Of a DNA stretch of 64,000 nt, positions 14,629 to 31,630 are shown piece by piece; position 1 is the stretch's first letter; the number at the start of each line of letters is the position of its first letter. Below the pieces are notes generated by a model. The model was given only the letters and a program-made list of their open reading frames with translations, did no database searches and had not been told where the DNA came from. The stretch is taken from assembly GCA_964555935.1 (NCBI GenBank), contig CAZKUN010000007.1, positions 22,474 to 86,473 on the forward strand. Reading direction: 5' to 3'. The translations under genes were made by a program, and so were the position numbers. This DNA is from an uncultured Armatimonadia bacterium. GTDB lineage: Bacteria; Armatimonadota; Zipacnadia; Zipacnadales; VGFC01.

Positions 14629-14642
14629 TTGAGAGGCAAGCA

Positions 14643-15743
14643 ATGACATCACGCGAACGCATGATCACCGCCATGTTGAACGAGCAGCCGGACATGGTGC
14701 CCGTCGCGCCCGATACCTCGAACATGATCCCCTCCCGGCTGACTGGGAAGCGGTTCTGGGACGTGTATCTCTACAAGGATCCGCCGCTGTGGCAGGCCTA
14801 TATCCACACCTGCAAGCACTTCGGCTTCGACGGCTGGCTACCCAGCATCGGCGCGCAGACGCGCATGCAAAACGTCGCAATCGTTAAGCGTACCGATGAA
14901 CGGATCGTCGTTCAGCCCTATTCCGAGGCGAACGGCAAGCGCGCCTGGGTCCCGCTGGTTCACGTTTACTACGTCGCCGACCCGCCGACCCACAACGTCC
15001 CTTGTGAGAGGATCGGCCTGCCGCGCGTGCCGGAGACTTGGGAGGACTTCGTCGACGAGTCGGAGGAGTTGACGGAGGAGGAAGCCCTGCGCGCCGCTAG
15101 AGAGTTGATGGGGGACGCGGGCGTACTTGGGATGAATGTCGGCATCCCCGGCCTGCACGGGGAGGCGGGGATCTACGAGTATTACGATGACTACACGACC
15201 GTGAAGGACCGCGCGCTGGCGCACGAGCAGACCGTTGAGGAACGCGCGCGCCAGGTCTGTGAGATGGGGCCTGACTTCGTCTTCATCGGTTACTCGGGGT
15301 GTCTCACGTTCCAGACGCCGGAGATGTTCCGAGACCTCGGCCTTCCGAGCCTTCAGATCATCACGCGCGTCGCGAAGGAGTATGGCCTCCCCAGCCAGAT
15401 TCACTCCTGCGGGCCCGAGGCGGCGCTGGTGGAGATCGCCGCGAAGGAATCGGACCTCACGAACATCAACCCGCTTGAGCGCCCGCCAATGGGCGACTGC
15501 AAGCTCGATGAGATCAAACGCGACTTCGGCGCGGACATCAGCCTCATGGGCAACCTCCACACGACGGAGGTCATGCTCCACGGGACGCCCGATCTCGTGC
15601 GCGAAGAGAGCAAGTGGTGTCTCGATGTCGCGGCTGAGGGTGGCGGGTTCATCCTCTCGACCGGCGACCAGTGCGGGCGCGATACTCCGGACGAGAACAT
15701 CCATGCCATGATCGAGGTGGCGAGAGAGTGTGGGAAGTACTGA
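14643..15743 (+). CDS. uroporphyrinogen decarboxylase (URO-D)-like family protein (MtaA/CmuA-like methyltransferase fold)
   Basis: URO-D-like length and conserved pattern. RBS gagagg 5-6 nt before ATG 14643. ORF-track GTG 14625 overlaps the upstream stop. Confidence 0.7.
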   Translation: MTSRERMITAMLNEQPDMVPVAPDTSNMIPSRLTGKRFWDVYLYKDPPLWQAYIHTCKHFGFDGWLPSIGAQTRMQNVAIVKRTDERIVVQPYSEANGKRAWVPLVHVYYVADPPTHNVPCERIGLPRVPETWEDFVDESEELTEEEALRAARELMGDAGVLGMNVGIPGLHGEAGIYEYYDDYTTVKDRALAHEQTVEERARQVCEMGPDFVFIGYSGCLTFQTPEMFRDLGLPSLQIITRVAKEYGLPSQIHSCGPEAALVEIAAKESDLTNINPLERPPMGDCKLDEIKRDFGADISLMGNLHTTEVMLHGTPDLVREESKWCLDVAAEGGGFILSTGDQCGRDTPDENIHAMIEVARECGKY

Positions 15744-18010: not shown

Positions 18011-21000
18011 CTAGGCTTTCGCCAACTGCACCACCATCTCCATGTCGTTGAGGGTGATCGACTCGCCCTCGGCGGCCTCGACGATATCCAGTGCCTCGGC
18101 CAACGTTTCGCCCTGGATCGTCTCGGCGTACTCGGTGCAGACGGACGTCAGCCCCTCGTCGCCGCTCACCTTCAGGTGGATGCGGTCGGTGAGGTCAAGG
18201 CCCGCATTCTTGCGCAGGACTTGGATCCGCCGCACGATGTCACGCGCGAGACCCTCGCGGACCAGCGCCTCAGTTAGCGTGACGTTTAGCGCGATGGAGA
18301 CCTGTCCCGCCTCGGCCGTCATTATGCCTTCTCGGTCGACTGATTCGATCTCCACCATCTCCGGCGTGATCTCGGCGGTCTCGCCGCCAACGGTGATCGT
18401 GATGTTCTCGCCCGTCGCCAGCGGCTGAACCTCGTCCGCGCTGAGGTCGGCGATCACTGCCGCGGCCGCCTGTGACTTCTGTCGGAAGACAGGTCCGAGG
18501 GCGCGGTGGTTCGGGTTGGCCTTCACGGTCTTCAGCTCGCCAAGATCATCGACCAGCTTGATGTCCTTCACGTTGACCTCGTCGACGATGTCGCCCCGGA
18601 ACTTCTCGAGCCATGGGCGGCTCTCCTCGGGCATGACGACGAGCAACTCGCTTAGCGGCTGGCGCACGCGCATCTGGGCGTCGTTGCGCGCCGAGGAAGC
18701 GAGGTTGATGACCTGCTGGATGTCTTCCACCACCGCCTCGAGTTCACCGTCGATGAGATCCGGTCTCGCCACGGGGAAGGCCGTGTGGTGGACGCTCTCA
18801 GGCGCCGATTTATCCACGCCCCGCACGAGGGTCTGGTACATCTCCTCGGCCATGAACGGCATGAACGGCGCCGCCGTGCGGATGAGCGTGCAGATGACGT
18901 GGTAGAGAGTGTTGTATGCCGCTTGCTTGTCGGGGCTATCGCCAGCCTTCCACATCCGCCGGCGGCTGCGCCGGATGTACCAGCGAGAGACGTCATCCCA
19001 TAGCGCCTCGATGGCGTCCGCGGCGCGACGCACCTCGAAGGTCTCGAGCCCCTTGCGGACGTCCTCGACGGTCCTGTACGTGCGCGAGAGGATCCACTTG
19101 TCCGGCAGCGTCAGCGCCTCGGTCGGCGGCTCGTCGTACTTGCCGAGAGTCGGCTCGTCGACGTTGGCGTACATGATGAGGAACCGGTAGGAGTTCCAGA
19201 GCAGCGTGAGACGCCTCACGATATCGCGCCCGATGCCGAAGCCAAATCGCTGCGGTTGGTCGGTGGACTGGGTCAGGTACGACCAGCGCATGACGTCGCC
19301 GCCCATCTTGTCCTGCGCGTCGTCGAGCCAGATCGCGTTGCCCCAACTCTTGTGCATCTCCCGGCCGTCCTCGGCCAGCACTTTCTCGTATGTCAGGCAC
19401 TGCTTGTAGGGCGCGCGGCCGTCGATGGCGACGCCCATGATTAGCAGCGCGTAGAACCAAAGCCGGATCTGCTCCTGCATCTCGACCACGAGATCCGCTG
19501 GGTACCACGTATCAAAGAGGTCCCTCGTCGTCAGGTACCCCAGGGTCGAGAACGGCACGATCCCCGCGTCGAGCCAGCAGTCGCCGACCTCCACCACGCG
19601 GGTGACCTCGGCGCCGCACTTCGGGCAGGCGATCTTCACGTCGTCGATCCACGGGCGGTGCAGTTCGGGCAGATCATCAACCGGCGCGGTCGCGAGTTCC
19701 TTCAGCTCATCGAGGCTGCCGATGACGGTGATCTCACCGCACTCGCACGCGTAAAACGGCAGCGGCAAGCCCCAAAAGCGCTTGCGGGAGATGCACCAGT
19801 CGCCCATGCCCTCCAGCCAGTTCGCCATCCGCGCCTGAGCGTAGTCGGGTTGCCATGCAACCGTCGCGTTGGCGTCGAGAAGCTGCTGGCGGATCTCATC
19901 CACGCCGATGAACCACTCGTCGACGAGCCGGAAGATGAGTTCCTCGCTGCAGCGCCAGCAGTGCGGATAGCGGTGCTCGTACTGCTCGGTCTTGTAGAGG
20001 TAGCCCTTGGCTTCCAGGCTCTCGAAGACCGTCTCCGCGACCTCGCTGACGTACGCTCCGGACATGTCGCCGAAGGTGTCGAGGTACAGTCCCGCCTCGT
20101 CCGTCGCACCGATGACGGGGAGGTCGATCTCTTTCGACAGTTCGTAGTCCTCGAGCCCGCATCCGGGCGCGACATGCACGACGCCGGTTCCTTCAGTGGC
20201 CTCGACTTGATCCCAGACGACGACCTTGTGTTCGATGCCGTCCTGCGCCGCGATCTCGTCGAACGGGCCGCTGTAGGATCTGCCCGCAAGCTCGCCACCC
20301 TTAACGACTTCGACGACCTCGTGCTCGCCCTTGAGTATGTCGAGGCGTTCGGTGGCAACCCATAACAGCTCGTCGCCCTGCCTGACTTTGGAATACTCGA
20401 GGTCCTCGCCGACCGCCAGCGCTACGTTCGCCGCGAGGGTCCAGGGCGTCGTTGTCCAAACCAGGATCTTCTCTTCGCCGCCATCCAGCGGCAGCTTGAT
20501 GAAGACGGCGGTATGCGTGGTGTCCTTGTACGAATCGAGCATCTCGTGCTGGCTGAGGCTTGTCCCGCAGCGCGCGCACCAGGGCATCGGGCGATAGGCG
20601 CGATGCAGCCAGCCCTTCTCAAAGCAGCCCTTCAGGAAGTGCCAGATGTACTCGATGTTCGTGTCGGAGAGCGTGTAGTAATCCTCGCCCCAGCTCATCC
20701 ATTGGCCGAGTTCGATGGATTGCTCGAGCTGCAGCTTCGAGAACTTCTCCACCCGGGCACGACAGGCGCGGGAGAACTTGTCGAGGCCATACTCCTCGAT
20801 GTCTCGCTTCGTCTTTAGGCCGAGTTCCTTCTCGACCTCGACTTCGACCCACAGACCGTGGCAGTCGAATCCGTTCTGATAGCGCTGCTGGAAGCCTTGC
20901 ATGGCCTTGTAGCGCAGGTAGACGTCCTTGTAGGTCCGGCCGCGCGCGTGATGCACGCCCATCGGATTGTTGGCGGTGATGGGACCGTCAATGAACGAGT

Positions 21001-21124
21001 GGATAGGCCCTTCCGCGTTCTTCTCAAGCAGCTTCTCGAACGCGTTGGTCTCCTCCCAGAACTTGAGCGTGTCAAGCTGGGTCTGCCTGAAATCGGGCTC
21101 ATCCCTGACGGGGTTGAACAGCAT
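18011..21124 (-). CDS. ileS: isoleucine--tRNA ligase (type 2, about 1037 aa)
   Basis: Class I aaRS HIGH region (PMGVHHARG), KMSKS variant (MHKSWGN), CP1 editing domain and Zn-binding Cys cluster. Clear IleS family. Confidence 0.95.
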   Translation of the reverse strand: MLFNPVRDEPDFRQTQLDTLKFWEETNAFEKLLEKNAEGPIHSFIDGPITANNPMGVHHARGRTYKDVYLRYKAMQGFQQRYQNGFDCHGLWVEVEVEKELGLKTKRDIEEYGLDKFSRACRARVEKFSKLQLEQSIELGQWMSWGEDYYTLSDTNIEYIWHFLKGCFEKGWLHRAYRPMPWCARCGTSLSQHEMLDSYKDTTHTAVFIKLPLDGGEEKILVWTTTPWTLAANVALAVGEDLEYSKVRQGDELLWVATERLDILKGEHEVVEVVKGGELAGRSYSGPFDEIAAQDGIEHKVVVWDQVEATEGTGVVHVAPGCGLEDYELSKEIDLPVIGATDEAGLYLDTFGDMSGAYVSEVAETVFESLEAKGYLYKTEQYEHRYPHCWRCSEELIFRLVDEWFIGVDEIRQQLLDANATVAWQPDYAQARMANWLEGMGDWCISRKRFWGLPLPFYACECGEITVIGSLDELKELATAPVDDLPELHRPWIDDVKIACPKCGAEVTRVVEVGDCWLDAGIVPFSTLGYLTTRDLFDTWYPADLVVEMQEQIRLWFYALLIMGVAIDGRAPYKQCLTYEKVLAEDGREMHKSWGNAIWLDDAQDKMGGDVMRWSYLTQSTDQPQRFGFGIGRDIVRRLTLLWNSYRFLIMYANVDEPTLGKYDEPPTEALTLPDKWILSRTYRTVEDVRKGLETFEVRRAADAIEALWDDVSRWYIRRSRRRMWKAGDSPDKQAAYNTLYHVICTLIRTAAPFMPFMAEEMYQTLVRGVDKSAPESVHHTAFPVARPDLIDGELEAVVEDIQQVINLASSARNDAQMRVRQPLSELLVVMPEESRPWLEKFRGDIVDEVNVKDIKLVDDLGELKTVKANPNHRALGPVFRQKSQAAAAVIADLSADEVQPLATGENITITVGGETAEITPEMVEIESVDREGIMTAEAGQVSIALNVTLTEALVREGLARDIVRRIQVLRKNAGLDLTDRIHLKVSGDEGLTSVCTEYAETIQGETLAEALDIVEAAEGESITLNDMEMVVQLAKA

Positions 21125-21368
21125 GGTCTCTCACCGATCCTGCTCAGAAGTGTGTTGGCGCGTCGAGCCGCGTAGCGACGGGCTTCCAGCCCGTCGGCCG
21201 TGCGGTATCGCCTCGCATTGCCAAGTATACGTTGGGAAGCGCCTCAGGGGCACAGTATATTTCCGCGCCGATTACGAGTCAACCGGGGTCCGCCGCCCCA
21301 CGCGGAAGGTCCATACCCCCATTCACCCGAACCTCCCGCCGCTGTCGAATGCCCTTCTGTTGAGGTCA

Positions 21369-21938
21369 ATGACCATGCGCAAGGTACTGCTTGTGATCGG
21401 CGACGCCGCGGAGGTCACCGATACGTTGTACCCCTACTTCCGCGTCCAGGAAGACGGCTACGAGTGCGTCGTCGCTGCGCCGGAGAAGCGCGTCTATCAT
21501 CTCGTCCAGCACGACCTGCACCCGGACTGGGACATTACGATCGAATCGAAGGGCTACAACTTCCCTAGCGACATCGCGTTCCGCGACATCGACTGCGACG
21601 AATATACCGGCCTGATCATCTCGGGCGGGCGCGCGCCGGAGTACTTGCGCTACGACCAGGATCTCATGGCCGTCACGCGCCACTTCGCCGAGACGGGCAA
21701 GCCCATCGCCTCCGTTTGCCATGGCATCGAGATCATCGCCGCCGCCGATATCATCAAGGGCCGGCGCGTCACGACCGTCGCCAAGTGCCAGTATGACGCT
21801 GAGTTCTCCGGCGGCATCTACGAGGACAGCGAGGTCGTCGTCGACGGCAACCTCGTGACCGCCCGCACGTTCTGGGACAACGCGCCGTGGATGCGCGAGT
21901 TCATGAAGATCCTGAACGCCGCCCGCGACGCTTCGTAA
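21369..21938 (+). CDS. DJ-1/PfpI family protein (class I glutamine amidotransferase-like)
   Basis: VLLVIGD N-terminus and nucleophile elbow IASVCHG. Size about 190 aa. ATG 21369 (MTMRKVLL). Confidence 0.8.
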   Translation: MTMRKVLLVIGDAAEVTDTLYPYFRVQEDGYECVVAAPEKRVYHLVQHDLHPDWDITIESKGYNFPSDIAFRDIDCDEYTGLIISGGRAPEYLRYDQDLMAVTRHFAETGKPIASVCHGIEIIAAADIIKGRRVTTVAKCQYDAEFSGGIYEDSEVVVDGNLVTARTFWDNAPWMREFMKILNAARDAS

Positions 21939-21956
21939 TCACGTAGGAGTGACACC

Positions 21957-23153
21957 ATGGAACCACTGAACCTGATGCTTATCGGAGCCGGAATGATGGG
22001 CGCTCGCCACCTGCGCGGGCATGCTGAACTCGAGCGGACGAAGCCGGGCAGCCTGAAGCTCCGCGCGATCTGCGAGCCGCAGGAAGACGTCGCCGCCTCC
22101 GTCGCCGCCGAGGCCCAGGAACTCTTCGGCTACGCGGTCCCGACCTACCCGTCGACAGATGACGCACTCGCCGCCGAAGACGGCATCGAGGCGGCGGATG
22201 TCGTGACCGGCAACCGCTCGCACGACCCGATTGCCGTGCCACTGCTCGAATCGGGCATCCATGTCATGATCGAGAAGCCGCTCGGGCTCACCATCGAGCG
22301 CGCTCAGCGCATCATCAACGCCGCTCGCGAGTCTGATCGCGTGCTGGCCGTCGCCGAGAACAACCGGCGCGATCCGATCAACCGCCTCTGCCGACACATC
22401 ATCGAGAGCGGCCTGATCGGCGAGCCACAGCTCGTAATCCAGGCGCAGGTCAACGTCGGCCGCAACATCCTCGCCTCCGTCTGGCGTCACGCAACGTCAA
22501 TGGGTGGGTTGGCACTCGACATCGGCATCCACCAGGGCTACATGCTGGAGATGCTCCTCGGGCCGATCGACACGATTTACGCCCAGAGCCGCCAGGTCTG
22601 GCCGACCCGTTTGGACCCCCAGAAGAACGAGATTCCCGTGGAGTCGGATGATGTCTTCACTGCCACCGTGCTCTTTGAGAGCGGCGTCCGGGGCACGTGG
22701 ACGATGGACTTCGCCGGCGTCGGCAAGGGCATGTATCAGCGCGACGTCTTCGGCACGCTGGGAACGCTTGAGACCACCTCCGGACGCTCGGGCAATCCGC
22801 CGAAGGTGAAGCTCGAGGGCGAGGAGTTGCAGGGCGATGCGCTGCTCGAGCGCGTGCCTGAGTTTGAGCTGAACGAGATCGACACGGCGCTCTGGGGCGG
22901 CAAGCTCGCGAGCTACTCCCAGGAGGGTCCGATCACCGACCGCAAGCTGATCGCCGCGGAGCTTGATGACTTCATCACCTCGGTCCGCACGGGCTGCGAG
23001 CCCGAGGTGCCGGGCGAATTGGGAATCCGGGGTGTCGCCATCATCTATTCCCTGCTCGAATCATGCGCCAGTGGCTGCCCCGTGAGAGTGGATGACGTGC
23101 TCTCGGGCGAGGTCCGTTGCGTGCAGGATACCGTCGAAGCCGCCGGAGGCTAG
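21957..23153 (+). CDS. Gfo/Idh/MocA family oxidoreductase
   Basis: N-terminal Rossmann LIGAGMMGARH, EKP motif (IEKPLG). aggag RBS 8 nt upstream. Confidence 0.8.
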   Translation: MEPLNLMLIGAGMMGARHLRGHAELERTKPGSLKLRAICEPQEDVAASVAAEAQELFGYAVPTYPSTDDALAAEDGIEAADVVTGNRSHDPIAVPLLESGIHVMIEKPLGLTIERAQRIINAARESDRVLAVAENNRRDPINRLCRHIIESGLIGEPQLVIQAQVNVGRNILASVWRHATSMGGLALDIGIHQGYMLEMLLGPIDTIYAQSRQVWPTRLDPQKNEIPVESDDVFTATVLFESGVRGTWTMDFAGVGKGMYQRDVFGTLGTLETTSGRSGNPPKVKLEGEELQGDALLERVPEFELNEIDTALWGGKLASYSQEGPITDRKLIAAELDDFITSVRTGCEPEVPGELGIRGVAIIYSLLESCASGCPVRVDDVLSGEVRCVQDTVEAAGG

Positions 23154-23167
23154 GCCGAGACCAACAG

Positions 23168-23971
23168 ATGCTATCGCTCGTCGTCACCACATCCCGGGCG
23201 GAGAACCCGCAACTGCATCCCATCTGTCAGATGTGGGCTGAGCGGTTGCGCGTCCCCTTTGTCATCCGGCGGGATCGCTCCGTCGCCGCGATCTGTCGCG
23301 ATGAGGGCGTCGACGGTACGCTGGTGATCTCGGTCGACCGGCCGCCCACGTTCCTCTCAGCCGACCAAAGCATCCGGTACTACTACCACCCGGGCATGGC
23401 GCTGACGCGCATCCGCAACATCGTCCGCGGCATGGGCGATCCGATGGTTCGCGCGATGAAACTCGGTGAGGGAGACAGCGTCCTCGACTGCACGCTCGGC
23501 CGGGCATCGGACGCGCTCGTCGCGGCGCACGTGGTGGGCGAGACCGGGCGCGTGGTCGGGTTCGAGGCCTCGCCGGTGCTTGCTGAGCTGACCATTGACG
23601 GGCTGAAAGTCTACGAGCCCACCAAGGCAGCGCTCGCGCCCGTTTTCCGCGCCATCGACGCGCGCTCGGGCGATGCTCGCGAGTTCCTCCGCGAGTCCGA
23701 TGACGGGAGCTTCGATGTTGTCTACTTCGACCCCATCTTCGGTGATCCGGTAGACGCCTCGTCGCAGATGCAACCGCTGAGACCGCTGGCGGACCCGCAG
23801 CCGCTGGCGCCCGAGACGGTCGTCGATGCCCGCCGCGTGGCGCGGCGCTCCGTGGTCATTAAAGAGCGCGTCGAGGCCTCGCTGTGGGCGGAGCTGGGCA
23901 TCGTTGACATCTTCCGCGGCAACAAGAGCACCATTGCCTACGGCGCGCTTCCGGCCGTGGGCGCAGACTGA
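23168..23971 (+). CDS. class I SAM-dependent methyltransferase, RsmJ (16S rRNA m2G1516) -like
   Basis: Matches RsmJ/YhiQ blocks by recall: VLDCTLGRASDA, VVGFEASPVLAELTIDGL, VVYFDPIF. Start at MLSLVV (23168). Confidence 0.65.
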   Translation: MLSLVVTTSRAENPQLHPICQMWAERLRVPFVIRRDRSVAAICRDEGVDGTLVISVDRPPTFLSADQSIRYYYHPGMALTRIRNIVRGMGDPMVRAMKLGEGDSVLDCTLGRASDALVAAHVVGETGRVVGFEASPVLAELTIDGLKVYEPTKAALAPVFRAIDARSGDAREFLRESDDGSFDVVYFDPIFGDPVDASSQMQPLRPLADPQPLAPETVVDARRVARRSVVIKERVEASLWAELGIVDIFRGNKSTIAYGALPAVGAD

Positions 23972-23980
23972 GAGGCAGAA

Positions 23981-24265
23981 ATGGCTATTCGCGCGCTTCT
24001 GATTCATCCTGATGATCACGTTGCGGTTGTCACTGAAGACGTCGCTGTTGGCGACGCGGTGCTCGCCGAATCGTCCTCGGGATCCATCGAGATCACCGCT
24101 ACGATGGAGATCCTCGCCGGCCACAAGATCGCGGCGCGCGCCGTCGCGACGGGCGAGCCCGTTCTGAAATACAGTGAGAAGATCGGCCTCGCGATCCAGG
24201 ACATCGCCGTCGGCGACCATGTCCACATGCACAACCTCGCTAGCGACCGGGTGAAGGTGGACTGA
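23981..24265 (+). CDS. SAF-domain protein (UxaA/altronate dehydratase N-terminal small-subunit-like)
   Basis: 94 aa. IHPDDHVAVV...GHKIAARAV..GEPVLKY...IAVGDHVHMHNL pattern of SAF domain. Confidence 0.6.
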   Translation: MAIRALLIHPDDHVAVVTEDVAVGDAVLAESSSGSIEITATMEILAGHKIAARAVATGEPVLKYSEKIGLAIQDIAVGDHVHMHNLASDRVKVD

Positions 24266-24304
24266 GCGCCGCAGCGAAGGGCCGACGCCACAGGAGTTCG
24301 ATCC

Positions 24305-24544
24305 GTGCAAGATGAGTTGCCGTTTGACATCCCAGAGCCTCAGAAGCGCAAGCGCCGCCCGCGCCGGAAGCGCCGGGTCGTCTCGCCCAAGCGCGTGCCG
24401 GTGCAGCTCGCCATGTTCCGGGTGCCCGATCTCACGAAGTGCGGCTTCTGCGGCGTCGCCGTCACGGTGCTCGAGGAGATGGCCGCTTGCCAGGAATGTG
24501 GGGGGATAATTACGCGCCCCGAGCCTGATGACTTCGACGACTGA
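24305..24544 (+). CDS. small highly basic protein with C-terminal CxxC...CxxC zinc-ribbon and acidic tail
   Basis: 79 aa. GTG start with aggag 9 nt upstream. KRKRRPRRKRR stretch, then CGFCG...CQECGG, then PEPDDFDD. Stop is 12 nt before the radical SAM gene. Confidence 0.5.
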   Translation: MQDELPFDIPEPQKRKRRPRRKRRVVSPKRVPVQLAMFRVPDLTKCGFCGVAVTVLEEMAACQECGGIITRPEPDDFDD

Positions 24545-24556
24545 CGGAGGCCCCCA

Positions 24557-25600
24557 ATGCCCAACCCCGAGCCCGATCGAAGCGTCCCCATCGCGGAAGT
24601 CATCGAGCAAGTCGGCGTCGCCCGCGCCATCCAGATCAAACATGTCGCCAGTGTCCTCTACACCTATCGCTGCACCCTCCGCTGCCGCCACTGCCTCTTC
24701 AACTGCGCGCCTGATCGGCCTAACGTCCACGTCAGCCTGGAGGACGGGCTTGACTTCCTCCGCCAACTCCACGCGACAGGCCGCTGCATACACATCGCCG
24801 GCGGCGAGGCGTTGATGTACTACCACGAAGTGCTGGAGTTGTGCCGCGAGGCCGACAGGGAAGGCATCGCGCCGCACTTCATCGAGACGAACGCCACCTG
24901 GTGTGTCAACGGGGACGTCGCCCGCAAGCGCCTGCTTGAACTGCAGGACGCCGGCGTGCAAGGACTGCTTATCAGCGCCTGCCCGCACCATCAGCACGAG
25001 TGCCCGCCGGAGCGTTTCCGCACGTGTTACGAGACGGCCGTTGAGGTCTTCGGTGACCGCAATGTTGCGTCGTCTGACGTGCCGATGGAGACGCTGCGCA
25101 ATTACCACGAGATAGCCATGGACGACGAGAAGCTAGGCGAGTATGTCCGGCTCAACAACCCCTGCCTGGTCGGCCGCGCGGGGGAGCGCCTCGCGCGGTA
25201 CCTGCCGGAGCGGCCCATCGACGACCTCGCGCATGACAGCATGTGGAAGGGCGCCAGCGAGGATGCATCGTGTCGCAAGGAGTTCGACGGGCACGACATG
25301 TGGGAGATCCACATCGACCCGTACGGCAACTACCAGACTTGCTGCGGGATCATCTTCGGGAACACCAAGAACGAATCCCTCGCCGAGGTCCTCGAGCGTG
25401 GCGTCCATACCGCGAATCCTCTGACGGCCGCCGTCCACGCGAAGGGGCCGATGGGTCTGCTTGAGATAGCCGTCGAGAAGGGCTACCAGCCCCGCGAGGG
25501 CTACCAGCAGAAGTGCGGCATGTGCTGGGAGATCCGCAAGTTCCTCCGGCCCTTCTATCCAGACATCCTTGGCCCTGCTGAGATCTACCAGGGCGACTAG
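24557..25600 (+). CDS. radical SAM enzyme with SPASM/twitch-like C-terminal region
   Basis: CxxxCxxC (CTLRCRHC). C-terminal IDPYGNYQTCCG resembles the SPASM v-D-P-x-G-x-v-x-P-C block. Further Cys pairs (CGMC). ggagg RBS. Confidence 0.8.
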   Translation: MPNPEPDRSVPIAEVIEQVGVARAIQIKHVASVLYTYRCTLRCRHCLFNCAPDRPNVHVSLEDGLDFLRQLHATGRCIHIAGGEALMYYHEVLELCREADREGIAPHFIETNATWCVNGDVARKRLLELQDAGVQGLLISACPHHQHECPPERFRTCYETAVEVFGDRNVASSDVPMETLRNYHEIAMDDEKLGEYVRLNNPCLVGRAGERLARYLPERPIDDLAHDSMWKGASEDASCRKEFDGHDMWEIHIDPYGNYQTCCGIIFGNTKNESLAEVLERGVHTANPLTAAVHAKGPMGLLEIAVEKGYQPREGYQQKCGMCWEIRKFLRPFYPDILGPAEIYQGD

Positions 25601-25672
25601 CGCCCTCCCTTTCGCTCCCCAGATGGCACTGCTGCCGCTCCCAGGCGTTGAAGGTTCTGTGGAGGCGTTACC

Positions 25673-26905
25673 ATGAAACACCTGCGGCGCGCGTTCCTCG
25701 TGGCGGCGGCGATCTTTGCGGGCACGATGCTCGCGGCCGACCCGATCGAGATGGCTGGCGGCCGACGCCAGCGCATGAATGGCTATGTCGTTCTTCACCT
25801 CGAAGGCACCCCAGAGCAGATGGGCCGACAGCACGGCCTCTTGATGAAGTCCGAGGTCCAGCGGATGATTCGCGACCTGCTGCTAAAGGGCGAGTGCGAT
25901 ACCGAGGCCGAGCATCGCCGGCTAGTCAAGGGCGCGATGGTGATGGAGAAGTACCTCGGCCGCGAGTACCGTCAGGAGTTGCGGGCGCTGGCCGACGCGG
26001 CCGACGTCGAGTACGAGGACCTCGTTCTCGCTCAGCTCTTCGGCGACGTTCAACGCGCGAGCAAGAAGAGCTACTCCACGTCCTCCTCCAGCGACGATGA
26101 CTTCAGCGGCAGCGACCCCTGGCAGTGCACGTCCTACGCCGTCTTTGGGCCCGCCACAGCGACCGGCGAGTGCATCGTCGGTCGCAATATGGATTTCTGG
26201 GACCAGGGAGTCAGCGAGTGGGGCGCCGTGCTCATCCACTTCAAGCCTGACAATGGTATCCCGTTCGTCACCACCTCGTGGGCCGGCATCGTCAACGGCT
26301 GGACCGCGATGAACTTGGAGGGAGTCGTCAGCGCGAACAACAGCTCCTTCGACGGCAAGTCTGACTCCCTCGAGGGCATCAGCACCTGCTTCATGGTCCG
26401 CAAGATTGCCCAGTTCGCCCATGATGTCGAGGAGGGCGTGCAGATCATCAAAGACACCCCTCGCTCCTGCGGGACGAACATCATCGTCGCCGGTGGGAAT
26501 CCCGCCAACGCGGCGATCGTCGAGTTCGACCACGAGGAAGTCGCCGTCCGCTGGGCTGAGAATGGCGCTATTTGCGCGGCCAACGATTTCGAGAAGCTAT
26601 ACCAACGCGAGTCGGCAACCGGCTACACGTCGTACTACTCGCGCGCGGGTCGGCTCCGCGAACTGATCGAGGAGAACTTCGGCGAGATCACCCGTGGCGA
26701 CAACTTCGCTGCCGCCGAGGGCGTGCCGCTGCGCTACATCAACCTGCACTCGGCGCTGCTGTTTCCGAAGGACCTCCGCTTCAACGTCTCGATGTCGCTC
26801 AAGCCCGCGGCCGACCATTGGTATCGGCCCTTCCGCCTCACGCCCAATGGCGTCGAGCCCGTCCCCCTCGATGAGGGATGGAGGGAGACGCTGCCGACTC
26901 CGTGA
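25673..26905 (+). CDS. secreted C45-family Ntn-hydrolase (acyl-CoA:6-APA acyltransferase-like)
   Basis: Signal peptide. Internal nucleophile context WQCTSYAVFGP...GRNMDFWD typical of autoproteolytic C45/AAT-like enzymes. Confidence 0.65.
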   Translation: MKHLRRAFLVAAAIFAGTMLAADPIEMAGGRRQRMNGYVVLHLEGTPEQMGRQHGLLMKSEVQRMIRDLLLKGECDTEAEHRRLVKGAMVMEKYLGREYRQELRALADAADVEYEDLVLAQLFGDVQRASKKSYSTSSSSDDDFSGSDPWQCTSYAVFGPATATGECIVGRNMDFWDQGVSEWGAVLIHFKPDNGIPFVTTSWAGIVNGWTAMNLEGVVSANNSSFDGKSDSLEGISTCFMVRKIAQFAHDVEEGVQIIKDTPRSCGTNIIVAGGNPANAAIVEFDHEEVAVRWAENGAICAANDFEKLYQRESATGYTSYYSRAGRLRELIEENFGEITRGDNFAAAEGVPLRYINLHSALLFPKDLRFNVSMSLKPAADHWYRPFRLTPNGVEPVPLDEGWRETLPTP

Positions 26906-26916
26906 ATCTGGGGTCC

Positions 26917-27855
26917 ATGACACCTCGCGAGCGCGTTCTGACAGCGTTGGCTCACGAAGAGCCCGACCGCGTCCCCCACAACCTCCGGCCCTCCCATGAG
27001 TTGCTGACGATGCTCTCTGAGCGCGTGAGTGAGGTCGATTTCTCCGAGCACTTCGCTCACGACGTCCGCTTCGTACACATCCCCCTCGCTCCCAAGCCCG
27101 ACGACGTGCCCGACATCGACTGGGCGCCCGAGCCGTCGGCCGAGGCCATCGCCGAGGTCGCCAAGGTCGTCGATGCGTTCCACGAGCGGGGCTTGGCGGT
27201 CTGCGGTGGCTACGCGTGCGGCGTCTACGAGCAGGCGAAGCACTGGCTCGGCGACGAGGCCACGATGATGGGGCCACACGACGACCCCGCTAAGTTCGGC
27301 GAGTTCCTCGACCGAATCACCGAGTGGAAGGCCGCCGTCTATGGCGGCTACGCGGCGGCGGGCACGGACATCGTCTGGATGGGCGATGACCTCGGCTCGC
27401 AGCGCTCGCTCATCATGAGTCCCGAGCATTACCGCGAGTGGTACAAGCCTCGCCACGAGAGAATTGCGGACTACATCCGCTCCATCAGTCCCGACGCGAA
27501 GGTCGCCTTCCACTGCTGCGGCCACGTGACGCCGCTGGTCCGCGACCTCATCGAGGTCGGCATCGACGTGCTTGAAGCCGTCCAGGCCGAGACGATGGAT
27601 ATTGCCCACCTCAAGCGCGAGTTCGGTGCGGACATCTCGTTCTGGGGCGGCGTCGGTGCGCAAAGCGTCCTCGCCCGCACCACGCCCGAGCAAGTCACCG
27701 AGGGCGTTCGCGAGACGCTCCGCATCATGGCGCCCGGCGGTGGCTACATCGCGGCGCCGTGTCACACGCTGACCGACGAGGTGCCGTGGGAGAGCGTCAT
27801 CGCCTTCCACCAGACCATCACCGACCACGGCACGTACCCAAATCCGGGAGGATAG
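26917..27855 (+). CDS. URO-D-like family protein (paralog 2)
   Basis: MTPRERVLTALAHEEPDRVPH N-terminus and overall URO-D-like architecture. Start at ATG 26917. Confidence 0.7.
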   Translation: MTPRERVLTALAHEEPDRVPHNLRPSHELLTMLSERVSEVDFSEHFAHDVRFVHIPLAPKPDDVPDIDWAPEPSAEAIAEVAKVVDAFHERGLAVCGGYACGVYEQAKHWLGDEATMMGPHDDPAKFGEFLDRITEWKAAVYGGYAAAGTDIVWMGDDLGSQRSLIMSPEHYREWYKPRHERIADYIRSISPDAKVAFHCCGHVTPLVRDLIEVGIDVLEAVQAETMDIAHLKREFGADISFWGGVGAQSVLARTTPEQVTEGVRETLRIMAPGGGYIAAPCHTLTDEVPWESVIAFHQTITDHGTYPNPGG

Positions 27856-27858
27856 CCC

Positions 27859-29007
27859 ATGCCCGAAACACTCACCCACCGCGACCGCCTGCTCCGCTCC
27901 GCAAGGGGCGAATCGGTTGACCGCGTGCCCATCGATCCGCCGATCGCCTTCGACCGCATCGCGTGGGACGAGAAGGGCTCAGACGCGGCGCCGCATGGAG
28001 ATCCGCTGTGGGTTGAGGTCGCGGAGCGGTGCGCCGAGCACTGCGATGTCTTCGTCGGAATGCCCGCGTGCGGCGCGCTGTTTGATCGGCGCTTCCTCCT
28101 CACGCCGGGCAAGTTCATTGAGCGCCTGCCGGTGGAGAAAGAGGGCGAGTGGACCGTCATCAGGCACGTCGTCCACACGCCCAAGGGCGACCTCACCACC
28201 ACCGACAAGATCCAGGCCGGCGTCTCAACGGGTTGGTACACGGAGCCGCTGGTGAAGACGCCCGATGACGCCGAGGCGCTTCTCAGCGTTCCCTACGAGT
28301 TCACTCCCGTCGACCTCTCGCCGGCCAGGAGTTACGTCGAGAAGGTCGGCGACCGAAGCGTCGCCCACATTGGTGTCTCGACACCCCTTGTCAGCGTCTC
28401 GCGGCTGATGCACTTCGACGAACTGCTGCTGTGGTGCCATACCGAGCGTGAACTCGTGCATCGACTGATCGACACGATGACCGAGCGGATCGAACTGGGG
28501 CTGAGGTACGTGCTCGACGCGGGGCTGGGCGAGATGATGTGGCTCGGCGGATCAGAGCAGGCCACGCCGCCGATGATGGGGCCGGAGATGTACGACGAGT
28601 TCGTGACCCAGTACGACAGCCGGATCATCGACCTCATGCACAATTACGATGGCTTGGTCCATGTCCACTGTCACGGGAAGATCTCGGGGATTCTCGACCG
28701 TCTGCTCGACATGGACGTCGACATGACCGATCCTGTCGAGCCGCCACCTGATGGCGACATCACCATGGCCGAGGCCAAGAAGCGTTGCGCCGGCCGCATG
28801 ACTCTGATGGGCAACATCGAGTTCCGCGAGCTTGAGTTCTCCTCACCCAAGCGCATCCGCGAACTTATCAGGACCGCCATCCTCGACGGCGGCGCGGAGC
28901 GGACGTACCTCTACCCATCCGCCACGCCGATCCAGGCCCTCACGCCACAATACCGCGACAATGCCATTGCCTACATCGAAGCCGGCCTCGAGTTTGGCGC
29001 CTCGTAG
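27859..29007 (+). CDS. URO-D-like family protein (paralog 3)
   Basis: LTHRDRLLRSARGESVDRVPIDPP N-terminus typical of the URO-D/MtaA-like family. 3-nt gap after previous gene. Confidence 0.7.
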   Translation: MPETLTHRDRLLRSARGESVDRVPIDPPIAFDRIAWDEKGSDAAPHGDPLWVEVAERCAEHCDVFVGMPACGALFDRRFLLTPGKFIERLPVEKEGEWTVIRHVVHTPKGDLTTTDKIQAGVSTGWYTEPLVKTPDDAEALLSVPYEFTPVDLSPARSYVEKVGDRSVAHIGVSTPLVSVSRLMHFDELLLWCHTERELVHRLIDTMTERIELGLRYVLDAGLGEMMWLGGSEQATPPMMGPEMYDEFVTQYDSRIIDLMHNYDGLVHVHCHGKISGILDRLLDMDVDMTDPVEPPPDGDITMAEAKKRCAGRMTLMGNIEFRELEFSSPKRIRELIRTAILDGGAERTYLYPSATPIQALTPQYRDNAIAYIEAGLEFGAS

Positions 29008-29038
29008 GGGCGCGATTCATCGCGCCCTGCCTTCGTCT

Positions 29039-31630
29039 CTACTCCACGCTCACGCTGCCGTGGACTGTGAAAGCCTCGATCAGGCGGCCCGTGTGCCACC
29101 CGATCGCGTAGGCGGCGAACTCCACCGCGTATTCACCTCGTGGCAGGTCGGCGTTGTCCTCGGGGTGGTAGCGGAATCGGGCCCGGCTCTGCTCGGTGAT
29201 GGGAGCGCCGCGTCGGAGCACGTGCGCGTCGTTGATCTGCCCACGCAGGGCGATCTCGGCCTTGCTTCCGTCCGTCGCAGTTCCTACCACCGTCAGCGTT
29301 GAGTGACTCCCTTCGGCGTACCATCCCCGTACGGCAGGCGAGTAGGCCGAGGAGGCCAGTACCCTCTCGCGGTCCACCGGCACGTAGTAGTGGACGCCGC
29401 TCTTGCCTTCCATAATTTCCTGAGCATAGTCAATGCTCGATTCGCCGAGGGCGAGCTTCTTCGTGCTGATGAAGGCGGTCGGGTCGCCCAGCTCTCGCCA
29501 TTGGTTCGGGTCACGCCCAGGAGCGGCCGTCGGCGTGCTGGTCAGAGCCTGGTAGTACCTGCCGTCCCGGCTGTAAGTGTGGCCGAGTTCGATCTCGAGG
29601 CTCGGCGTGTAGCGATGAATGCGGCCGTAGTAGTCCTCCATCGCTCCTTGCAGCGCCTCCGGCTCGAGGTACCCGTTGGGCACGAGGATGGCCTGCATGT
29701 CCCGAAGTCGCAGGGCTGCCTGGCCGAGGTCGTGGTCCTTGCCGACAATGATCGGTGGCGGCATTTCACGCTCGAGCGGCTCCAGCGCGCGGCTGTCCAG
29801 CGTCACCCGCGTGTCGCCGTCTCCGTAGTTCAGTTCGGCGCGCGCGTGTGACGTCGCCGCGTCCAGGTTGATGTGAAACTGGTTCATCACGCTGTCGTTC
29901 AGGCGCGTGTCGGGAAGCGGGAAGCTGAGGACGTTGCCGTCGGCGTCGGTCACGTCAAGCGTGCAGCGCGAGGCGGCCAGTTGGGGGCTGTGCCCGCGGA
30001 TGGTCTCCGGGCTGAACACGTTGCCCCAGTTGCCGTGGAGCGCGGGGTAGATGTAGGAGGTGAGCGCGTGCTCCGGCTCTGGGTCGTACACGCCCACGAG
30101 TGTCATCACGGGCACGCCGATCTTGTCGGGCTTCGGCGTGGGGGCGTCGAGTTCGACCATCCGCTGGCTGTCGGGATCCCAACGGCTGTAGCCGGTGGAG
30201 CTGGCGCTGTCGAGCACTCCGGATTGGGCCGTGATATTGGCCTGGATCAGCTTTAACGAGTACGGCGTGTGGTGGGTGAACACGCTGGTGGGTCCCATGG
30301 GCGCTCCGCCGGCCATGGCATCCCTGCCGAAGAGGTAGGGGATGTCGCCCTCGACGGCTCCGCCATTCCAGGCCACGTTAGCGACGAGACGGTGCTTGAA
30401 CAGGTTGTAGCCCCACCCGCCATTGCGCGCGTGGTTGCTCAGCTCGCCGCCTGGGTAGTGCCCGAGCCCGTGGTCGTGGCCGTACTCATGCGAGTATTCG
30501 TTGCCGGTTGTGGACTGCAGCGTGAGCTGTCCGCCGCCGCCGCTGAGGCCGTGGACCACGAACTGATCCTGCGGATTGCCGTCGTCATCGATCCTCGTGT
30601 AGACGCCTGCGCTCGTGTGGAGCGTTGTTTGGCGGTAAGGACGCGGCTGATCCTGGTTGCCGCCGACAGTCGCGAGCACGCCGACGTTGGCGTTGTTGAT
30701 GCCGGTTGAGACCATCCCCTTGGCAATGTTCTCGCGCATGTCGCCGGCGTAGACGCCCGCTCCTTCGAACGTGCTGCGCTGGGTGTAGACGTTCCCGTTC
30801 GGCAGCACCACCTTCTCAAAGTGGATCGGGAGGTACTGAGCGGCCACGAACTTGGCGATGGGCACGGTCTGGAAGTAGTCGAGCGCGAGCTCCGCGGCGA
30901 TGCTGCTGCCGGGGCGTGACCACTGGTTGGTCGGGACGTTGGCCGGGTCGGTCAACATGCCCAGTTCTATGTTCTGGACCACCAACTCGATGGGAGCGCC
31001 GAACTCAAAGGCGTCAGCCGGCAGCGTGGCGCTCTGTCCGGCAGCGTTTCGCACGGTGATACTCATGCCGGGATGCATGAAAGTCCAGGGGATCACGGCG
31101 TTCCAGGCTCGCTTGTTGAAGACCATCGGCTTGCGGCCGTCGGTGTTATTGAAGTCACTGTGAGCGCCGTTCTCGGGTGGCAGCAGGTCGAGGGTCAAAC
31201 TCTCGCCCCGGCTGTTGACGATGATCGCTTGCAGCTCCTGGTGGTCGGAATCGACGGGGGTGAAGAGAACGTAGGCGCCCCGATCGGTCACCAAAAGCGG
31301 CCGTTCCTGGTCTGCTCGATTCGGGCCTACGAGAGTGCTCTGAAGGAAGGCGATCTCGCCGTTCAGCTCGCCCTCGACATTGGGTGTCAGGGGCAGATTG
31401 GCAGTGAAATCGATGGCCTCGGCCCAGTAGGGCGGTTCGGCCGGCGGGGCCGGCCTCGCTCGGCGCGCTGCCTTGCGTCCGCGGCCACCGTAGGGGCGCC
31501 GGCGTTCCTGGGCGCCAACCCGGCCAACCAGTACACAGCCGGTCAGCATCACGAGGGAGATCATCACAACGCACGCGCGACGCAACGTCGCTCCAATCTG
31601 GTGGTATCGGGGATGCGCGCGTCCGGTCAT
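29039..31630 (-). CDS. secreted zinc metallopeptidase, M66 (StcE)-like HExxHxxGxxH
   Basis: Motif SHEYGHDHGLGH. N-terminal hydrophobic segment (MISLVMLTGCVLVG, possible lipobox). About 860 aa. Confidence 0.65.
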   Translation of the reverse strand: MTGRAHPRYHQIGATLRRACVVMISLVMLTGCVLVGRVGAQERRRPYGGRGRKAARRARPAPPAEPPYWAEAIDFTANLPLTPNVEGELNGEIAFLQSTLVGPNRADQERPLLVTDRGAYVLFTPVDSDHQELQAIIVNSRGESLTLDLLPPENGAHSDFNNTDGRKPMVFNKRAWNAVIPWTFMHPGMSITVRNAAGQSATLPADAFEFGAPIELVVQNIELGMLTDPANVPTNQWSRPGSSIAAELALDYFQTVPIAKFVAAQYLPIHFEKVVLPNGNVYTQRSTFEGAGVYAGDMRENIAKGMVSTGINNANVGVLATVGGNQDQPRPYRQTTLHTSAGVYTRIDDDGNPQDQFVVHGLSGGGGQLTLQSTTGNEYSHEYGHDHGLGHYPGGELSNHARNGGWGYNLFKHRLVANVAWNGGAVEGDIPYLFGRDAMAGGAPMGPTSVFTHHTPYSLKLIQANITAQSGVLDSASSTGYSRWDPDSQRMVELDAPTPKPDKIGVPVMTLVGVYDPEPEHALTSYIYPALHGNWGNVFSPETIRGHSPQLAASRCTLDVTDADGNVLSFPLPDTRLNDSVMNQFHINLDAATSHARAELNYGDGDTRVTLDSRALEPLEREMPPPIIVGKDHDLGQAALRLRDMQAILVPNGYLEPEALQGAMEDYYGRIHRYTPSLEIELGHTYSRDGRYYQALTSTPTAAPGRDPNQWRELGDPTAFISTKKLALGESSIDYAQEIMEGKSGVHYYVPVDRERVLASSAYSPAVRGWYAEGSHSTLTVVGTATDGSKAEIALRGQINDAHVLRRGAPITEQSRARFRYHPEDNADLPRGEYAVEFAAYAIGWHTGRLIEAFTVHGSVSVE

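Follow-up and report, generated by a model that had tools for sequence, protein, structure and literature searches.

Does a short, cysteine-containing open reading frame (ORF) that ends just ahead of a radical S-adenosylmethionine (radical SAM) gene encode the peptide on which that enzyme acts, or a protein with a function of its own? The question is raised by a 64,000-nucleotide stretch of contig CAZKUN010000007.1 from an uncultured Armatimonadia bacterium (hereafter the window), in which a 79-codon ORF at 24305..24544 on the + strand, with a GTG start and a TGA stop (24542-24544), is followed 12 nt later by a radical SAM gene (rSAM) that begins with ATG at 24557. A preliminary description had read the product, here called ZnR, either as a nucleic-acid-binding zinc-ribbon regulator or, in a shorter form, as a substrate of rSAM, and in both cases as the likely specificity determinant of the cluster. 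The best explanation overall is that the full 79-aa protein belongs to an Armatimonadota family of small zinc-ribbon proteins and serves as a nucleic-acid-associated, housekeeping-type adaptor, a reading to which we assign about an even chance of being right.

The ORF, which translates as MQDELPFDIPEPQKRKRRPRRKRRVVSPKRVPVQLAMFRVPDLTKCGFCGVAVTVLEEMAACQECGGIITRPEPDDFDD, is a real, full-length coding gene, beyond what chance would produce, because its codon-position GC content is like that of its neighbours, its ratio of nonsynonymous to synonymous substitution rates (dN/dS) is low, and gene callers have called the identical 79-aa protein on 15 metagenome contigs. Specifically, in a window of 65% GC the three codon positions have GC contents of 0.70/0.45/0.825, compared with 0.66/0.41/0.85 for rSAM, and the coding pattern is present separately in codons 1-36 and 37-79. 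Against its 81% identical ortholog P0002 (locus L001), dN/dS is 0.095 overall; the N-terminal half alone has 0.19, the C-terminal half 0.04 and the neighbouring rSAM 0.125. An antisense ORF of 583 aa across the same region (23357..25108) was rejected as a GC-rich artefact, with none of the three reverse frames over 24280-24560 carrying a coding GC pattern. The features that the preliminary description had read from the letters, namely the ORF and its GTG start, the stretch KRKRRPRRKRR, the CGFCG...CQECGG pair, the acidic tail and the 12-nt gap to rSAM, are all present in the sequence. So is the Shine-Dalgarno AGGAG (24292-24296, + strand), albeit 8 nt before the GTG and not 9, a difference of counting. 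Within the 12-nt gap, GGAGG at 24546-24550 (+ strand) forms the ribosome-binding site of rSAM. No hydrophobic h-region follows the Arg run of ZnR that would make it a Tat signal.

The choice of start codon bears directly on the substrate question, as a 43-aa Cys-rich peptide had been envisaged from the internal ATG at 24413. That ATG encodes Met37, and position 37 is Leu in most members of the family alignment (40 sequences); therefore, the 43-aa reading cannot be general. The region ahead of Met37 is, moreover, conserved as protein and under purifying selection. The long GTG-initiated form is upheld by the N-terminal motif and Arg-rich tract kept across the family, together with the N-terminal dN/dS given above. 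A GTG with a GGAG-type ribosome-binding site is kept in five orthologs, and the orthologs at L001 and L013 retain ACAGGAG, a spacer of 7-8 nt and the GTG within upstream DNA that is otherwise unalignable (34% identity). The L013 ortholog (836-1066) has been called as a 40-aa protein from an internal ATG (944-1066); the frame upstream of this ATG encodes VSDELPLDLPPREKRKRRRQRGR, and ACAGGAG and GTG precede it. Judged from the conserved GTG, the AGGAG and the N-terminal DELPLDLP...KRKRRR, the real form of this ortholog is 76 aa. The comparison fixes the correct start codon and indicates that gene callers truncate at least one ortholog.

An exhaustive phmmer search of 1.84 billion cluster representatives (cut-off E<=1e-3) recovered 23 full-length relatives, most of them 76-111 aa long and aligning over nearly the whole query; a word-indexed search returned only ZnR itself and P0002. 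Profile searching brought in further members, for a family of about 45 homologs of 72-111 aa. Two alignments (A1 and A2) were made, with A2-type conservation counts taken over 40 sequences and motif counts over 44. Every member whose source name states a phylum comes from Armatimonadota or Armatimonadia, and the named members are annotated "hypothetical protein", apart from P0127, which NCBI names HypA. A tblastn search of phage and plasmid collections gave no match to ZnR. The family thus appears, from the sequences searched, to be rare, unnamed and so far found only in Armatimonadota. The gene is vertically inherited, with one copy per locus examined, and searching the whole 64-kb window with a hidden Markov model (HMM) of the family yields this one copy and no other. 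Two matches were set aside: P0165 (228 aa), which might have been taken for a fusion, was judged to be an over-extended ORF call in GC-rich DNA in which the family region begins at an internal Met, and P0144 (1255 aa), a eukaryote-like repeat protein, was judged a chance match.

The architecture of the family is constant, comprising an N-terminal motif, an Arg-rich tract, a short linker ending in phi-phi-x-x-P (where phi is a hydrophobic residue), a zinc ribbon and, usually, an acidic tail. In the window protein, the N-terminal linear motif QDELPFDIP (residues 2-10; 24308..24334) aligns with the family pattern [DE]Q-phi-x-[FL]-[DE]-[FLIV]-P, exemplified by MDQIKFEFP and DQLSLDLP, with ELPFDIP as the version of the window subfamily; this segment is predicted to be disordered. 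The Arg/Lys tract KRKRRPRRKRR (residues 14-24; 24344..24376) has a counterpart in every member (consensus RRKRxRRR) and is likewise disordered in the model. The segment QLAMF (residues 34-38; 24404..24418), which includes Met37, corresponds to a pattern QL[AS][ML]F that occurs only in the window subfamily (the window protein, P0002, the L013 ortholog and P0154). The zinc ribbon then occupies residues 41-72 (24425..24520), and the acidic tail EPDDFDD residues 73-79 (24521..24541), all on the + strand. Seven positions (P41, C46, C49, G50, T54, C62 and C65) do not vary across the 40 sequences, and R15, G47, I68 and R71 reach at least 90% conservation, giving the ribbon consensus CG-x-CG-x3-T-[VIL]-x7-C-x2-C-x2-[IV]-x2-R. 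Most members end acidic (EEE, EDL, DD...), with a tail that varies in length and sequence and is absent from P0154, P0131, P0139 and P0145. The basic stretch before the ribbon and the usually acidic tail, which had been singled out as unusual in one protein, are according to the alignments family-wide features.

An AlphaFold2 model computed with the 40-sequence alignment has a mean predicted local distance difference test (pLDDT) score of 76, with residues 41-72 at ~90 and residues 1-40 at 67-71 with essentially no secondary structure. Four strands are modelled, at 42-45, 52-55, 59-61 and 68-70. The model shows residues 41-72 as a C4 four-strand zinc ribbon and residues 1-40 as a disordered tail, and together with the four invariant Cys the predicted fold bears out the zinc-ribbon assignment that had been made from CxxC...CxxC. 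No Pfam, NCBIfam, PHROG or PADLOC scan of the ORF and the family members gave a match above threshold; the sub-threshold matches of members were confined to the ribbon (HypA, DZR, Zn_ribbon_8 and DUF7129). A Foldseek search of the model against the PDB retrieved only generic zinc ribbons at E>0.3, with RNA polymerase (RNAP) subunits at E>1, and the ribbon region has generic zinc-ribbon similarity only. In a profile search of PDB sequences, Rpb12 was the best match (E=0.002 over 30 residues), followed by eS27, bL32 and uS14 (E 0.05-0.2). The fold itself is ordinary, and none of the libraries searched contains a description of the family or its architecture.

If ZnR were made for rSAM, the two families should travel together, and their distributions speak against this. 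The rSAM family is 50-63% identical across Armatimonadota, Latescibacteria, Poribacteria, Planctomycetota, SAR202 and Theionarchaea (at least six phyla). ZnR lies directly before rSAM only where the latter is 100% (the window), 81% (L001) or 76% (L013) identical. At 62-63% identity (L011, L014-16, L017-19) a GH10-like gene ends just upstream of rSAM instead, and at 53% identity (L012) the upstream gene is on the opposite strand; the family HMM finds no copy of ZnR within +-6 kb of rSAM in L011, L012 or L014-19. Thus, the ORF is missing from syntenic rSAM loci in all but the closest relatives, which counts against the link to rSAM that had been drawn from adjacency. Conversely, ZnR occurs without rSAM at L020, L021, L025, L027, L030, L031 and L032. 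A domain scan of rSAM itself matched only Radical_SAM (PF04055) and Fer4_12 (PF13353), over residues 32-140, with no SPASM match, and because its CxxxCxxC begins at residue 39, there is no room for an N-terminal recognition element (RRE) of the kind that binds precursors of ribosomally synthesized and post-translationally modified peptides (RiPPs). From this comparative evidence, ZnR is predicted not to be acted on by rSAM, nor to determine its specificity. Since the orthologs of ZnR live in unrelated neighbourhoods, it is also unlikely to be a regulator reserved for this cluster. The GH10-rSAM arrangement is an observation of another kind: three independent loci of Armatimonadota type have a GH10-like gene (PF00331) whose end lies 4-15 nt ahead of rSAM (L011, 4676-7020; L014, 4703-7038; L017, 4692-7077), and the two look like a conserved pair without an obvious rationale.

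The ZnR family occupies at least three unrelated syntenic contexts (classes A, B and C). Class A includes L027 (6049-13488), where the gene order is SAM-dependent methyltransferase (SAM_MT), SAF-domain gene, ZnR, DegT aminotransferase, C45/AAT-family gene (C45), URO-D, an intervening gene and URO-D. Compared with the corresponding block in the window (23168-29007), the encoded proteins are 59% (SAM_MT), 60% (SAF), 69% (C45) and 63% (URO-D) identical, and ZnR 49%; the slot held by rSAM in the window is occupied in L027 by a DegT/DnrJ/EryC1 aminotransferase. At L020, also of class A, a URO-D-like gene starts 12 nt after ZnR. The gaps between ZnR and the downstream gene are 12, 12, 12 and 21 nt. 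In class B (L021-24, L032-33), ZnR stands between PG0541 and a ceramidase gene in the order OEP-MFP-RND pump-PG0541-ZnR-ceramidase, an order common to two members from different 50% clusters. In class C (L025, L030, L031), ZnR is monocistronic: it is transcribed away from an IU_nuc_hydro/MGH1-glycosidase operon and towards the gene that follows. The divergent operon holds DNA-repair genes, namely RecO and a PolX-type polymerase (L025, 1-3850) and an HhH-GPD glycosylase (L031, 2314-2982), a weak association with DNA metabolism. Because the neighbourhoods differ between lineages, the role of ZnR is expected to be independent of the adjacent rSAM. The block that the window and L027 have in common can be written as SAM_MT(PF04445)-SAF-ZnR-X-C45/AAT-URO-D, in which X is rSAM in the window and DegT/DnrJ/EryC1 in L027.

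What, then, might the protein do? Poly-Arg tracts and zinc ribbons often bind nucleic acids, and a short motif kept within a disordered tail generally serves to dock a partner protein, so a role as an adaptor or regulator suggests itself. In such a scheme the Arg-rich tract and the zinc ribbon would hold ZnR on nucleic acid (DNA or RNA), the N-terminal linear motif would dock it to a conserved partner protein, and ZnR would serve some core nucleic-acid process as a small adaptor or regulator. A nucleic-acid-binding zinc-ribbon protein, as the preliminary description had put forward, is still the most reasonable general reading of the sequence. The most specific candidate partner, suggested by pattern resemblance only, would be the beta sliding clamp. 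Clamp-binding motifs follow the consensus Q-phi-xLF (pentapeptide) or Q-phi-xLxL (hexapeptide), with examples in the N-terminal QLSLPL of Hda, QFKLPL of Caulobacter HdaA and QVELEF of Pol III alpha (PMC4564189; PMC3836487; bioRxiv 10.64898/2026.05.27.728225). Among the ZnR sequences, an N-terminal hexapeptide Q-phi-x-[LFM]-x-[LFIV] (e.g. QLSLDL, QLRLEF, QIKFEF) is present in 28 of 44, within the first 3-10 residues of the conserved protein. Four others, which are without the N-terminal Gln, carry the internal pentapeptide QL[AS][ML]F just ahead of the ribbon, and the window protein, with its QLAMF at 34-38, is one of these. In total, 32/44 match the penta- or hexapeptide, compared with a mean of 0.7 for shuffled tails, and 12/44 match neither pattern.

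Several points weigh against the adaptor scheme and its clamp version. The shuffle control measures the conservation of the motif, not its binding target. Eight or nine members are without the Gln that counts most in clamp-binding motifs, among them the window protein, which reads ELPFDI where the N-terminal motif aligns; of these Gln-less proteins, P0124, P0125, P0126 and P0145 are also without an internal QLxLF. The net charge of ZnR is only ~+2, and its acidic ends may hide the basic tract. The DNA-repair neighbours of class C are on the opposite strand, which makes for a weak association, and the SAM_MT-SAF-ZnR-X-C45-URO-D order shared by the window and L027 leaves room for an enzyme-linked role in that lineage. 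The function proposed for ZnR is inferred from composition and one short motif. With these points in view, it is a tentative and rather unlikely proposal that ZnR is an Armatimonadota-specific partner of the beta clamp, a protein of roughly 80 aa combining a clamp motif, N-terminal in most members and internal in the window subfamily, with an Arg-rich, zinc-ribbon DNA-binding module to regulate replication or repair. No more probable is the corollary that such a partner would be a functional analogue of Hda or YabA while being unrelated to either. If true, the clamp-binding reading would add a new lineage-specific regulator of replication or repair.

The alternatives differ in which part of the evidence they take as primary. 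The position of the gene, 12 nt before rSAM and kept there with the 81% and 76% identical rSAM orthologs (L001 and L013), together with four Cys in the C-terminal half of the protein, would suit a RiPP precursor, in which ZnR, in its full or 43-aa form, is a Cys-rich substrate crosslinked by the adjacent enzyme in the manner of a sactipeptide, ranthipeptide or SCIFF peptide; the weak NCBIfam matches of rSAM also include the peptide-modifying YydG, PqqE and PapB, all far under their cut-offs. This is nevertheless very improbable. ZnR occurs in at least four other contexts that have no rSAM, among them the operon at L027, where DegT fills the slot, and the rSAM family, more than 50% identical across its six or more phyla, is without ZnR at identities of 63% and below. 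The enzyme offers neither room for an RRE nor a SPASM match, Met37 is not conserved, and the Cys quartet is invariant together with P41, G50 and T54 and is modelled as a zinc ribbon at pLDDT ~90. RiPP precursors typically have a conserved leader and a core that varies. If the conserved gene order is taken as primary instead, ZnR could be an operon-specific regulator or helper of the SAM_MT-SAF-X-C45-URO-D pathway, whether as a DNA- or RNA-binding regulator comparable with phage Mu Com, which activates translation of the downstream gene, as a Trm112-like activator of the PF04445 methyltransferase, or as a LysW-like carrier. The order is kept between the window and L027 although ZnR is only 49% identical, the downstream gaps are short, and no internal promoter or terminator was found. 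However, class B and class C loci contain none of these enzymes, and a single copy per locus with full-length conservation argues for orthologs with one function. Further, PF03966 (Trm112) is not among the 25 families most matched by 25 members at E<=1, nor among the matches of the window protein. LysW systems employ an ATP-grasp (LysX-type) ligase as partner, and LysW is without a long basic N-terminal tail; no LysX-type gene lies near ZnR, and the acidic tail that prompts the comparison is variable or absent. An operon role is accordingly improbable, slightly more so than the clamp proposal.

The ribbon itself, if given the greatest weight, would point to a lineage-specific accessory protein of the ribosome or RNAP, akin to bL32/eS27 or Rpb12/RpoP. 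The best PDB sequence matches are of this kind, with the Rpb12 alignment covering the whole ribbon, and the weak Foldseek matches are also largely ribosomal or RNAP zinc ribbons; the Arg-rich extension would fit, as would the strong purifying selection and a distribution like that of a core gene. Set against this, the matches are marginal, of the sort that any CxxC-x12-CxxC ribbon gives; ribosomal proteins do not usually have acidic ends and a net charge of ~+2; and none of the seven contexts examined places ZnR beside ribosomal or RNAP genes. We therefore consider this reading as improbable as that of an operon helper. Finally, NCBI names P0127 'hydrogenase maturation nickel metallochaperone HypA' (L032, 6001-6279), and weak PF01155 matches are indeed found in 18 of 25 members, the best at E=0.001. 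These matches cover the ribbon only and fall far under the family threshold, and the window protein has none at E<=1. HypA has an alpha/beta Ni-binding domain and an N-terminal MHE motif. ZnR proteins, at 72-92 aa, have a disordered N-terminus (MQDE, MDQ, MKKD) with neither of these features, and no hydrogenase or urease genes occur in any context examined. The chance that ZnR is a metallochaperone of this type is close to nil; the HypA name of P0127, ruled out by domain content, is likely a misannotation that could propagate. The adaptor reading, in which ZnR is a nucleic-acid-associated protein of a housekeeping type, is the one we retain.

Within the window, ZnR is the fifth of nine co-directional genes with gaps of no more than 72 nt, all on the + strand. 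These encode a DJ-1/PfpI protein (about 21378-21938), a GFO/IDH/MocA protein (21957-23153), SAM_MT (PF04445; 23168-23971), a stand-alone SAF domain of 94 aa (23981-24265), ZnR, rSAM, the C45/AAT-family protein (25673-26905) and two URO-D/MtaA-like proteins (26878-27855 and 27859-29007). The SAM_MT gene belongs to the directly upstream block that stays with ZnR in L027, where the SAF gene holds the same position. The rSAM (24557-25600; 347 aa; PF04055) is, on present evidence, a neighbour and not a functional partner. The only promoter-like site ahead of the operon on the + strand is at 21232-21261, and because no promoter- or terminator-like site was found on that strand over 21800-27900, ZnR is predicted to be co-transcribed with its neighbours. 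An Rfam scan of 20000-30000 gave no match. The SAF protein resembles the N-terminus of UxaA or galactarate dehydratase, with no adjacent gene for a large subunit. Several URO-D/MtaA-like (methylcobamide:CoM methyltransferase-like) paralogs lie within 15 kb (14625-15743, 26878-27855 and 27859-29007), among sulfatases, a GH43-like protein, an M66 (StcE/TagA-like) peptidase (29039-31630, - strand) and an S15 peptidase. URO-D paralogs recur near ZnR in other loci, yet they seem abundant in these genomes overall.

The value of this analysis is in part corrective. A small Cys-containing ORF before a radical SAM gene resembles a RiPP precursor, and comparative genomics says otherwise, so the ORF gives no reason to mine the rSAM cluster for peptide natural products. 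In addition, the comparisons define, in a phylum that has received little study, an unnamed and strongly conserved family of small proteins built from a linear motif, a poly-Arg tract, a zinc ribbon and an acidic tail.

ZnR resembles several known systems in part. The substrates of SCIFF and ranthipeptide radical SAM enzymes are likewise short Cys-containing ORFs directly upstream of the enzyme gene, but the Cys residues of ZnR form a predicted structural zinc site that is kept independently of rSAM, and the two family distributions are largely non-overlapping. With LysW and related amino-group carriers, ZnR shares a small zinc-ribbon fold, an acidic C-terminal tail and a place in an enzyme operon; it differs in that its acidic tail varies and is missing from some members, its neighbourhood encodes no ATP-grasp ligase, and its basic N-terminal tail is long. 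The generic C4 ribbons (Zn_ribbon_8/FmdB, DZR, Zn_ribbon_3, the HypA zinc module and DUF7129) have the same two CxxC pairs, 12 residues apart, in a four-strand ribbon; unlike them, ZnR has the N-terminal linear motif, the poly-Arg tract, the invariant P41 and T54 and the conserved R71, and no member passes their thresholds. Rpb12/RpoP comes closer in detail, with P-x4-C-G-x-C-G...T...C-x-x-C-G-x-[IV] and a short unstructured N-terminal tail, although Rpb12 is archaeal and eukaryotic, is without the poly-Arg tract and N-terminal motif of ZnR, and matches it with a marginal score. The likeness to Hda and HdaA (QLSLPL, QFKLPL) is one of motif and position, in that Q-phi-x-L/F-x-L/F lies near the extreme N-terminus of a disordered segment and is often followed by Pro (QLSLDLP). 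Hda has an AAA+ domain that ZnR is without, there is no homology between them, and the window subfamily of ZnR is without the Gln at the aligned position. Similarly, YabA has a coiled coil not found in ZnR and shares no homology with it; it is nonetheless a small zinc-binding regulator of the clamp and DnaA, to which ZnR may be likened for the small zinc-binding module that it carries downstream of its motif.

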